This document shows positions 8,648 to 9,980 of a DNA stretch of 64,000 nt, in pieces (positions within the stretch are counted from its first letter, which is position 1; each line of letters begins with the position of its first letter). The DNA lies in the IMG/VR virus record IMGVR_UViG_3300035208_000248; one strand, 5' to 3'. A program made the translations under genes and the position numbers. Below the pieces are notes generated by a model. It had not been told where the DNA came from. It was given only the letters and a program-made list of their open reading frames with translations, and did not search any database. The DNA is from an uncultured virus (IMG/VR IMGVR_UViG_3300035208_000248). Lineage: Duplodnaviria > Heunggongvirae > Uroviricota > Caudoviricetes.

Positions 8648-9964
8648 ATGCCAAAAACAAGTAGGTTTGATAGATTTGATGAAAATTGGAAAAACATAGG
8701 AGTTAAAGATAGACTAATTAAACTAGAATTATGTTTAACACCAGTATTAAATCAGTCATTAACATCATATTTAAATCTATATTATGATAGTATTAAGTTT
8801 ATGATGAGACAGATTTATACACATTTAGTTAATACACAAACAATTCCGGGTAAAGCCGATACTTTTGGTAGTCAATTAGCTGTGTTATATAAAAAAGAAT
8901 TATTTACACATGGCTGTTTTACTGCAAAATTTAGGGAAAATATAACCATATCTTCTGCAATGAAATATTGTTCATATATTAGAAATAAACCATTAAATAA
9001 AATTATACCTAAAAGACCATTAAGTTTTAATAGTTCTAAAGGTACTTTTATTCGTAAGGCACAATGGGATGATATTAATAATATATTAAATATTCCTTTA
9101 GGTGGTATTTCAACATATACTAAAAATAATAAACCAACATATACACAAAACTATTTATCTATTCCTTGTAAAGTATTATATAATAAAGAATTACATAAAA
9201 AGGAAATCTCTGGAAATTTAATTAATAATAATAATAATACTTATATCTTTGCTGCAAGAGGTAAGTGTCCTATTAATTGGTTATATGTACCAATTGCATC
9301 ATTAGGAATAGATATTAATAAAAGTCCACAAAACTTTGTTACATTATCTAATAATATTAAAATACCACATAATGAACTAATTATTAAACAGTGTAAAACT
9401 ATTAATACATTAAATAGATTATTAAAAGATAAAAGTGGATCAACAATTAAAAGTAAGAAAAGGAGACATGTCCGCAGAGCATGGAAAAATGTACATAGGG
9501 CATTATTAAAATCTGTAAGTAAAATAGTAAATAATATTATAAATGATGCTATTGCAAACAAGTTATTATTATGTATAGATACTGCTAATACTGGAGCTAA
9601 AAACGGAACATATGGACAAGATAAATTTATTTCATTATTAATTAACGGTTGTGAAAACAAAGGTATACCGTTTGTACTTGTGCCAACATTTTTTACTTCA
9701 CAACGATGTTCTATTTGTGGACAACAAGGTAAAAGAAAAGGAGAGGCTTTTACATGTATTTGTGGAGCATTTTTAGACGCTGATATTAATGCGGCTAAAA
9801 ATATAGCAGATTTTGGTACACATATATGGAATAATGGTATTGTTTCTTTTAAAGAGTGGTTTGAAAACGAAACATTAACATATATTAAGAAAAAGAAACC
9901 TAAAAATGCCGTCTTATTATGTGCGGCTAATAAACAAGCGACAAATCACGCTTTGTTAACATAA
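8648..9964 (+). CDS. tnpB: TnpB/Cas12f-like RuvC protein (IS200/IS605 OrfB superfamily)
   Basis: RuvC-I LGIDIN, Zn finger TSQRCSICG...FTCICG, RuvC-III DADINAAKNI; the RuvC-II region reads LCIDT. Confidence 0.85.
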   Translation: MPKTSRFDRFDENWKNIGVKDRLIKLELCLTPVLNQSLTSYLNLYYDSIKFMMRQIYTHLVNTQTIPGKADTFGSQLAVLYKKELFTHGCFTAKFRENITISSAMKYCSYIRNKPLNKIIPKRPLSFNSSKGTFIRKAQWDDINNILNIPLGGISTYTKNNKPTYTQNYLSIPCKVLYNKELHKKEISGNLINNNNNTYIFAARGKCPINWLYVPIASLGIDINKSPQNFVTLSNNIKIPHNELIIKQCKTINTLNRLLKDKSGSTIKSKKRRHVRRAWKNVHRALLKSVSKIVNNIINDAIANKLLLCIDTANTGAKNGTYGQDKFISLLINGCENKGIPFVLVPTFFTSQRCSICGQQGKRKGEAFTCICGAFLDADINAAKNIADFGTHIWNNGIVSFKEWFENETLTYIKKKKPKNAVLLCAANKQATNHALLT

Positions 9965-9980
9965 TACTTGTTCTTGATTT
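9908..9980 (+). ncRNA. Structured repeat unit 4 (overlaps tnpB 3' end)
   Basis: GCCGT-cttattatgt-GCGGC-TAATAAAC-aagcg-acaaatca-cgcttt-GTTA-acataata-8nt-tgattt. Confidence 0.75.

Follow-up and report, generated by a model that had tools for sequence, protein, structure and literature searches.

TnpB and Cas12 proteins are usually viewed as systems in which a single protein is served either by one guide RNA or by the identical repeats of a CRISPR array. For the omega-RNA of ISDra2, PMC10097598 describes pairing between the stem-1 loop and the three bases just 5' of the guide, and a conserved stem-1 loop pseudoknot in Cas12 guide RNAs. The locus analyzed here lies in 64,000 nucleotides (nt) of DNA from an uncultured virus of the Caudoviricetes (IMG/VR record IMGVR_UViG_3300035208_000248), and this whole stretch is referred to below as the window. 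A TnpB/Cas12f-like gene in the window is accompanied by five copies of a short unit on the same strand, one of which overlaps the 3' end of the open reading frame (ORF). The protein is ordinary and the RNA side unusual, as the candidate module is short, has four covarying helices and no free guide, and occurs in three to five divergent copies. The units and the gene were located as follows, with E values from the covariance model R1:

8356..8429, + strand: unit 1 (E 2e-12), made up of hairpin 1 (8356-8374), linker (8375-8379), hairpin 2 (8380-8405) and tail (8406-8429)
8470..8541, + strand: unit 2 (E 1e-10), abutting unit 3 with a 75 nt period
8546..8617, + strand: unit 3 (E 6.6e-12), followed by T-runs (8618-8637), a ribosome-binding site and the ATG at 8648
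8648..9964, + strand: TnpB/Cas12f-like gene, 438 amino acids, matching Pfam Cas12f1-like_TNB (PF07282) at 5.6e-16, above cutoff
9908..9980, + strand: unit 4 (E 2.4e-12), of which 9908-9964 is also the last 18 codons and the stop codon of the gene
9984..10069, + strand: unit 5, a terminal subtype (E 2.4e-9), followed by a T-run and the ATG of a sigma-factor gene

Model R1 was built on the two hairpins from eight units, five from the window and three from the locus L082, which carries a 45%-identical homologue of the protein. In the window it matched the five units only (E 2e-12 to 2.4e-9), and the next best match was at E 0.77. The units share a 19-nt core motif, present five times on the + strand (8371, 8486, 8561, 9924 and 9999; spacings 115, 75, 1363 and 75 nt). 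Core identity among units was 79-89% and the units were divergent elsewhere; no further copy of a 13-mer of the core was found in the 64 kb at up to 1 mismatch. No CRISPR-like tandem array was found in the window, and no Rfam 15 family matched positions 7800-10600 at E up to 1.

Each unit begins with hairpin 1 (5 bp), followed by a conserved 5-nt linker and hairpin 2 (8 bp and one bulged base). Across the five window units, 65/65 cells of the hairpin alignment were paired and 7 of the 13 pairs were changed on both sides, compared with 25-43% paired in a slid control in which the 3' partners were shifted by 1-3 columns. With the L082 units included, 104/104 cells were paired and 8 of the 13 pairs were compensatory. 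The G-U pairs of the hairpins fit a reading from the gene (+) strand only. Both loops also pair with the tail. The 3' part of the hairpin-1 loop was complementary to the tail starting one nt past hairpin 2 (6-9 bp, 8/8 units); non-cognate loop and tail combinations gave a mean of 3.2 bp, with 2/56 reaching 6 bp, and in a fixed register 48/48 positions paired vs. 51% for non-cognate combinations, with two to four pair types per position. The 3' part of the hairpin-2 loop paired with the tail further downstream through 6-10 Watson-Crick bp, again in 8/8 units; hairpin 2 and this partner are separated by exactly 17 nt in six units, and by 19 nt in both terminal units. The tail is thus ordered as hairpin-1 loop partner, 7-11 unpaired bases and hairpin-2 loop partner. 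In unit 5 the hairpin-2 loop is longer (16 nt), the spacer is 19 nt and the loop-tail helix is 10 bp. These patterns support, at the level of sequence comparison, a predicted interleaved double pseudoknot of about 75 nt with four helices and ~27 bp, in which few conserved bases are unpaired (in the R1 type, the 5-nt linker and two A's only). We read hairpin 1 and its loop-tail helix as a putative counterpart of the stem-1/pseudoknot core shared by TnpB and Cas12 guide RNAs.

Position 9908 is both the first base of hairpin 1 of unit 4 and the first base of the codon that opens the 18-residue peptide (9908-9961), and the stop codon falls in the strand that pairs with the hairpin-1 loop. The ORF ends in ...KKKKPKNAVLLCAANKQATNHALLT (also quoted as AVLLCAANKQATNHALLT), with TAA at 9962-9964. 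The original prediction, made from the window sequence, had stated that this C-terminal peptide and the stop codon are encoded by unit 4, and they were confirmed as 18 codons and a TAA within 9908-9980; the extent that it gave for the unit, 9895-9980, was narrowed to 9908-9980, inside the span claimed. Comparison with close homologues had been proposed as a check and the result agreed with the claim, as the 45%-identical homologue (L082/L161) carries the same module over its final codons, in an identical frame and with the stop codon at the same position of the fold. The placing of unit 4 at the omega-RNA position was likewise borne out, by the ORF 3' end in the window and the homologue and by the modules that distant clades carry across their own stop codons (see below).

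The order in L082 is SSB (single-stranded DNA-binding protein) gene, unit, TnpB-like gene, unit over its last codons, a third unit 28 nt further on, and sigma gene. By hairpin-1 loop and tail, unit 1 looks orthologous to unit A of L082, and the unit-5 subtype holds the same position there (unit C), so that the left, C-terminal and right units make up the core common to both phages. T-runs lie behind units 3 and 5 in the window and, in L082, behind units A and C. The viral record of the homologue (71.6 kb) has three R1 units, all of them at the gene; none was found in the record of a cassette-free relative, or in 90 and 54 other loci apart from the copies of the window itself (L081) and of the homologue (L082, L251). 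The R1 type was therefore found at the TnpB-like gene only (8/8 units, two phages).

The RuvC triad of the window protein (D222, E336, D379) and a zinc ribbon (CxxC...CxC) are intact. An AlphaFold (AF2) model built with 29 family sequences had a predicted local distance difference test score (pLDDT) of 82.7 and a predicted template modelling score (pTM) of 0.73. Foldseek aligned it at full length (about 400-450 columns) to Cas12f, Fanzor2, TranC and TnpB structures with E values down to 1.9e-13, the closest being 8dzj (1.9e-13) and 9jfq. As modelled, the protein is a complete TnpB/Cas12f fold with predicted WED, REC and RuvC domains, and a member of that superfamily. Residues 414-438, the tail written by unit 4, had pLDDT <50, and two homologues, P0003 (43% identity) and P0004 (42%), stop short of the tail that unit 4 encodes. 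Among 42 family proteins, the first RuvC position (D-I) was kept in 42/42 and the second (E-II) in 40/42, the third was D in 7, H in 19 and Q in 16, and all four zinc-ribbon (TNB) cysteines were invariant (42/42). As their third RuvC position is H or Q, many marine relatives may not cut DNA (nuclease-dead or altered). The family is of modest size, with 692, 171 and 41 cluster representatives of 1.84 billion at E<=1e-3, 1e-10 and 1e-30, respectively. The protein had no match in the GenBank phage collection (tblastn) and none in viral contigs searched with the single protein sequence; cellular genomes gave no close relative, only distant TnpBs with 23-44% identity over C-terminal segments.

More distant phage homologues carry other modules in the same arrangement. 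Marine homologues (32-37% identity) have a different module, an H-type pseudoknot of about 60 nt, in which 95.3% of cells were paired and 12/16 pairs were compensatory over 14 units. The corresponding model, R2, gave 160 matches at E up to 0.01 in 70 sources (L003, L014, L090-L110 and other marine loci, and records G001-G006). All matches had the orientation of the gene; on either side of it they often stand head to tail with a period of 59-64 nt, up to six units per side. By our own reading, 20 of 39 marine loci with a delimited ORF have a match that crosses the stop codon. Only 6-8 bases of the marine module are variable and unpaired, the units abut with no spacer, and the final unit of an array is immediately followed by a T-run or a tRNA. 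Rfam searches of four marine loci returned tRNAs and chance-level matches only. Between two loci that are 90% identical, L095 (685-760) and L003 (3090-3160), a tRNA gene in one replaces the first array unit of the other; the other changes are concentrated in the short linkers of the units and look like drift.

A third clade, comprising L002 and L004 and with H as its third RuvC residue, has another module again, with covarying hairpins and, by eye, both loop-tail pairings as in the window type:

L002 3255-3460 and 4687-4830; L004 3384-3450 and 4698-4840: third module type, found upstream of the gene, over its stop codon and again 72 nt beyond

A candidate structured RNA on the gene strand overlapping the ORF 3' end was found in the window, in L082/L161, in the 20 marine loci and in L002 and L004. 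That three protein clades have three RNA types in one arrangement is our main argument for a partnership of protein and RNA.

In the window, the units and the gene form one inserted block:

8347..10087, + strand: inserted cassette, starting right after the SSB stop codon (8344-8346) and ending just before the start codon of the sigma-factor gene (10088)
8432..8469, + strand: A+T-rich inverted repeat (arms 8432-8441 and 8455-8464) and then a T-run, behind unit 1, identified by eye

The cassette is 1.74 kb long and holds the five RNA units and the TnpB-like gene, with a unit at either end of the block. In L245, a related phage locus free of the cassette, there are 0 nt between the SSB stop codon and the sigma ATG; as the two abut there, all of 8347-10087 is an insertion. 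A search with the SSB returned 80 viral loci, 50 of which (L245-L294) share the arrangement of DNA polymerase III and SSB; a TnpB-like match was found in L251 alone, which is from the record of the 45%-identical homologue, and 79 loci were without one. The window SSB and sigma proteins matched those of cassette-free L245 at 63% and 41%, vs. 54% and 27% for cassette-bearing L251. This closer kinship to L245 would fit loss of the cassette from L245, or two separate acquisitions at one site. The window SSB (8320-8346) ends in ...VVDSI, without the usual C-terminal IPF that is present in the SSBs of L161 and L245, and the left junction may lie inside the former last SSB codons. The inverted repeat behind unit 1 may be a weak terminator by its sequence; it was uncalled in the terminator scan because the scan demands at least 3 G-C pairs, and in 8200-10200 the scan for promoters and terminators did not rise above the level of shuffled sequence. 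Hallmarks of IS200/IS605 elements were not found: no TnpA (Y1 transposase) family turned up among the 52 ORFs scanned, there were no recognisable left and right (LE/RE) ends, and one copy of the cassette was found in the 64 kb window.

The best explanation, to which we give roughly an even chance, is that the units are the cognate omega-RNA-like scaffold of the protein, in several copies and with the guide absent or self-paired. Each unit would be a copy of one structured RNA module travelling with the nuclease gene on the cassette, and unit 4, over the last 18 codons and the stop codon, would occupy the position where an omega-RNA starts. The cassette DNA would be transcribed, and the protein would bind the precursor and perhaps cut it into units. 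The sequence repeats, their covariation, the ORF overlap, the layout in homologues and the insertion are direct observations from which this proposal starts. A bolder version, advanced tentatively and in our judgment rather unlikely, is a phage-restricted TnpB/Cas12f branch with compact, closed double-pseudoknot RNAs in multi-copy sets around the gene, their guide slot taken up by the back-pairing tail, acting either as a guide-free RNA-scaffolded nuclease or through caged guides that open on a target.

A number of results weigh against the cognate-scaffold explanation. Minimum free energies of single units were no better than those of shuffles (z -0.3 to -1.6), and the case for the fold rests on covariation since such folding of single units was unremarkable. 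That covariation comes from 8 related units in two phages, and the shuffle control ignores their relatedness, which the slid control corrects. The two metagenome runs that carry the window DNA, one from groundwater and one from a landfill, are both DNA runs. Segments considered as guides also gave no signal: the segments after hairpin 2 (17-19 nt), the hairpin-1 sequences and the segments after the units matched the window at shuffle level, and in 79 related phage loci (597 kb) their counts were again at shuffle level, with two 2-mismatch matches of one segment in unrelated places. Unit tails compared with the window at up to 2 mismatches gave only two matches, both of the unit 3 tail. These were set aside as targets; both are coding, and their common 10-mer occurs four times vs. 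0.86 expected and was judged codon-driven. A 3' guide as in canonical TnpB is unlikely because T-runs stand directly behind the terminal units, and no free 3' guide of ~16 nt from the right-end flank was found, as units abut or precede T-runs and there were no targets. The other points against it come from R2 units found away from the gene, which are given below with the explanation that they favor.

The guide slot, that is the segment past the first pseudoknot strand, is 14, 14, 15, 15, 16, 16, 17 and 21 nt long in the eight units (21 in unit 5), and its 3' half (6-10 nt) pairs with the hairpin-2 loop in all of them. As this half is paired and matches were not above chance, the units are not repeats of a scaffold plus a free guide. 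In the same way, the 26-28 nt between the cores of units 2 and 3 and of units 4 and 5 are no free spacer, since they pair with the hairpin-1 and hairpin-2 loops in 8/8 units; inter-unit segments were thus rejected as free guide spacers, their matches being at shuffle level. Because these segments are paired within the module, the differences from unit to unit are compensatory. The original prediction had derived the other units from unit 4 by duplication and reprogramming, of which duplication is plausible for units 2 and 3 and reprogramming is unsupported, the differences being compensatory. Its further suggestion of a route from a single guide to an array did not hold, given the internal pairing of the inter-unit 26-28 nt and the lack of target matches above chance.

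The units might instead be general transcript-boundary modules (leader, terminator, processing or stability) that act in cis and independently of the TnpB-like protein. No TnpB-like gene accompanies the 5 and 3 R2 units of two incomplete phage records (97 and 54 kb, with CheckV completeness of 61% and 34%), and in another record 6/7 R2 units are far from the gene. Some solo R2 units follow a TATAAT-like box by 1-3 nt and precede a ribosome-binding site, others lie 4-6 nt behind stop codons and are followed by a T-run, TCATTTTTT, still others are head to tail with tRNA genes, and one pair brackets an unrelated prepilin-like gene (L329 1784-2848). With solo units at promoter-like boxes, stop codons and tRNA genes, a transcript-boundary role is a serious rival, at least for the R2 type, and the T-runs after units 3 and 5 and L082 units A and C, as well as the unit at either cassette end, would suit it too. 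Against it, the R1 type keeps to the TnpB-like gene in both phages, the RNA type switches with the protein clade three times out of three, and a unit spans the stop codon at TnpB-like genes whereas at ordinary genes a solo R2 unit starts past it; moreover, a plain terminator or leader needs no four covarying helices. Overall we consider it possible but unlikely. Another reading keeps the protein and turns the units into mini omega-RNAs, whose 14-17 nt tails would be guides half caged by the hairpin-2 loop, forming a natural multi-guide array. The tail begins right past the 3' strand of the pseudoknot, at the guide position of the ISDra2 omega-RNA (PMC10097598), tail lengths of 14-21 nt are guide-like, tails differ between units and between orthologous units of both phages, and the RuvC triad is intact in the clade of the window. 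However, the pairing of the last 6-10 nt of the tail with the hairpin-2 loop (8/8) means that both sides must change together, no tail matched the window or the 597 kb of related phage DNA above chance, variable unpaired bases number just 6-8 in the marine module, whose units abut with no spacer, and the changes between 90%-identical marine loci are drift-like and sit in the short linker. We regard such an array as improbable; if true, it would represent an independent route from one omega-RNA to many.

The three other explanations considered are less probable still. Hairpins in single-stranded DNA, forming IS200/IS605-type transposon ends for a Y1 transposase, would account for units at both block ends on one strand and for the bulged base of hairpin 2, and the end hairpins of IS608 also carry a bulged base. 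Yet no Y1 transposase or other recombinase family was found among the 52 window ORFs scanned with Pfam, a side can hold up to six units in marine loci, end hairpins would not be expected to form two long-range loop-tail helices, and tRNA genes are interleaved with units and T-runs lie behind them, which makes this reading extremely improbable. Self-cleaving ribozymes of an undescribed class that cut the cassette transcript would agree with the compact pseudoknotted fold and with tandem one-strand copies flanking a phage TnpB-family gene, and small ribozymes and RAGATH motifs are known from such neighbourhoods. PMC11061315 supports the point about neighbourhoods in part. The Rfam search is negative for this explanation too, and the conserved unpaired bases amount to the 5-nt linker and two A's. 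Known ribozyme classes have about ten or more, and there is very little probability that the units belong here. The order of units, T-run and gene, with pseudoknotted repeats, recalls an RNA antitoxin-like inhibitor as in type III toxin-antitoxin systems, in which upstream pseudoknots would keep the nuclease inactive; tandemly repeated pseudoknots are known from type III systems of both bacteria and viruses (PMC12283969). We nonetheless think this very unlikely, as the gene has units behind it and over its stop codon as well, the copies have diverged and are not near-identical, and the protein is unrelated to ToxN-type RNases.

The gene content around the cassette reads as phage, with a DNA polymerase III alpha containing an intein, the SSB, the small sigma-70-family protein and glycosyltransferases; a tail tape-measure-like protein is also encoded in the window, and inteins and LAGLIDADG genes occur several times. 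DNA polymerase III alpha (3160-7849) is in two ORFs (3160-5013 and 5750-7849), with an RNase_T-type exonuclease ORF (5001-5747) between them. Inteins were found in the finger region of DNA polymerase III alpha (5750-7849), in a glycosyltransferase (10527-13385) and in a 1457-amino-acid ORF (54908-59281), the latter two with LAGLIDADG domains, and the ORF 48156-49091 has a weak LAGLIDADG match. Judged by these sequence matches, the phage is rich in putative selfish elements. Positions 22162-23067 encode a protein with prepilin-type N-methyl and DUF1559 domains; DUF1559 is typical of Planctomycetes, which may be a hint of the host. A tandem repeat (46725-47213; period 171 nt, 2.9 copies) lies within an ORF on the - strand (46343-47485). 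Positions 8300-10100 were nearly identical in contigs of the groundwater and landfill runs, with one listed difference, 8533 C>T, in the unpaired part of the unit 2 tail.

In the abstracts and passages covered by a full-text literature search, pseudoknot modules in tandem or in multiple copies around TnpB-like genes of phages were nowhere described; the nearest topics there were omega-RNA structure, TldR, dCas12f-sigmaE, TIGR-Tas and type III antitoxins. At least two candidate structured RNA families of phages emerge from the analysis, and one of these has 160 matches in the loci analyzed. If the protein binds the units, they would bear on the minimal size of an omega-RNA core, on guide-independent action of TnpB relatives and on the origin of repeated guide-RNA genes.

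Compared with TnpB and omega-RNA of IS200/IS605 elements (ISDra2), the window protein has the same fold, RuvC triad and zinc ribbon, and its candidate RNA resembles an ISDra2-type omega-RNA in lying on the gene strand, starting inside the ORF 3' end and forming a pseudoknot between the first-hairpin loop and a downstream strand. The module is, however, about 75 nt and self-contained, vs. a scaffold of about 116 nt or more, it occurs in 3-5 copies, some of them upstream, with no free 3' guide as the tail pairs back to hairpin 2, and the cassette is phage-borne at a fixed site between conserved genes, with no TnpA or IS ends found. Cas12f (type V-F) and TranC proteins are the closest structural matches, and in both cases repeated RNA-coding units accompany a miniature TnpB-like effector; TranC systems are reportedly intermediates from TnpB to CRISPR. 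Unlike type V CRISPR, the window lacks identical repeats, variable spacers, a tracrRNA:repeat duplex and adaptation genes, and its units are divergent and covary internally.

TldR and dCas12f-sigmaE are TnpB/Cas12f proteins exapted as transcription regulators (for dCas12f, PMC13472631). The phage or regulatory setting is alike, as a small sigma-70-family gene stands directly behind the window cassette, and the third RuvC position is H or Q in the majority of marine relatives. Sigma coupling like that of dCas12f-sigmaE was set aside; the window protein keeps D-E-D, marine relatives are not beside sigma genes and no guide was found. As L245 has the sigma gene without the cassette, this gene is part of the phage backbone. 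In intronless homing, free-standing phage homing nuclease genes are wedged between conserved genes (PMC13565253). The window nuclease cassette likewise lies between two conserved genes and is present or absent among relatives, and inteins and LAGLIDADG genes occur in the window as well, but its nuclease is TnpB-type with RNA modules, so the likeness is one of setting and a homing role is putative. In ToxIN and tenpIN, as in the window, pseudoknotted RNA units stand in tandem ahead of a nuclease gene and a T-run separates the two; the window differs in its protein family, in the divergence of its copies and in having units also downstream and over the ORF end.

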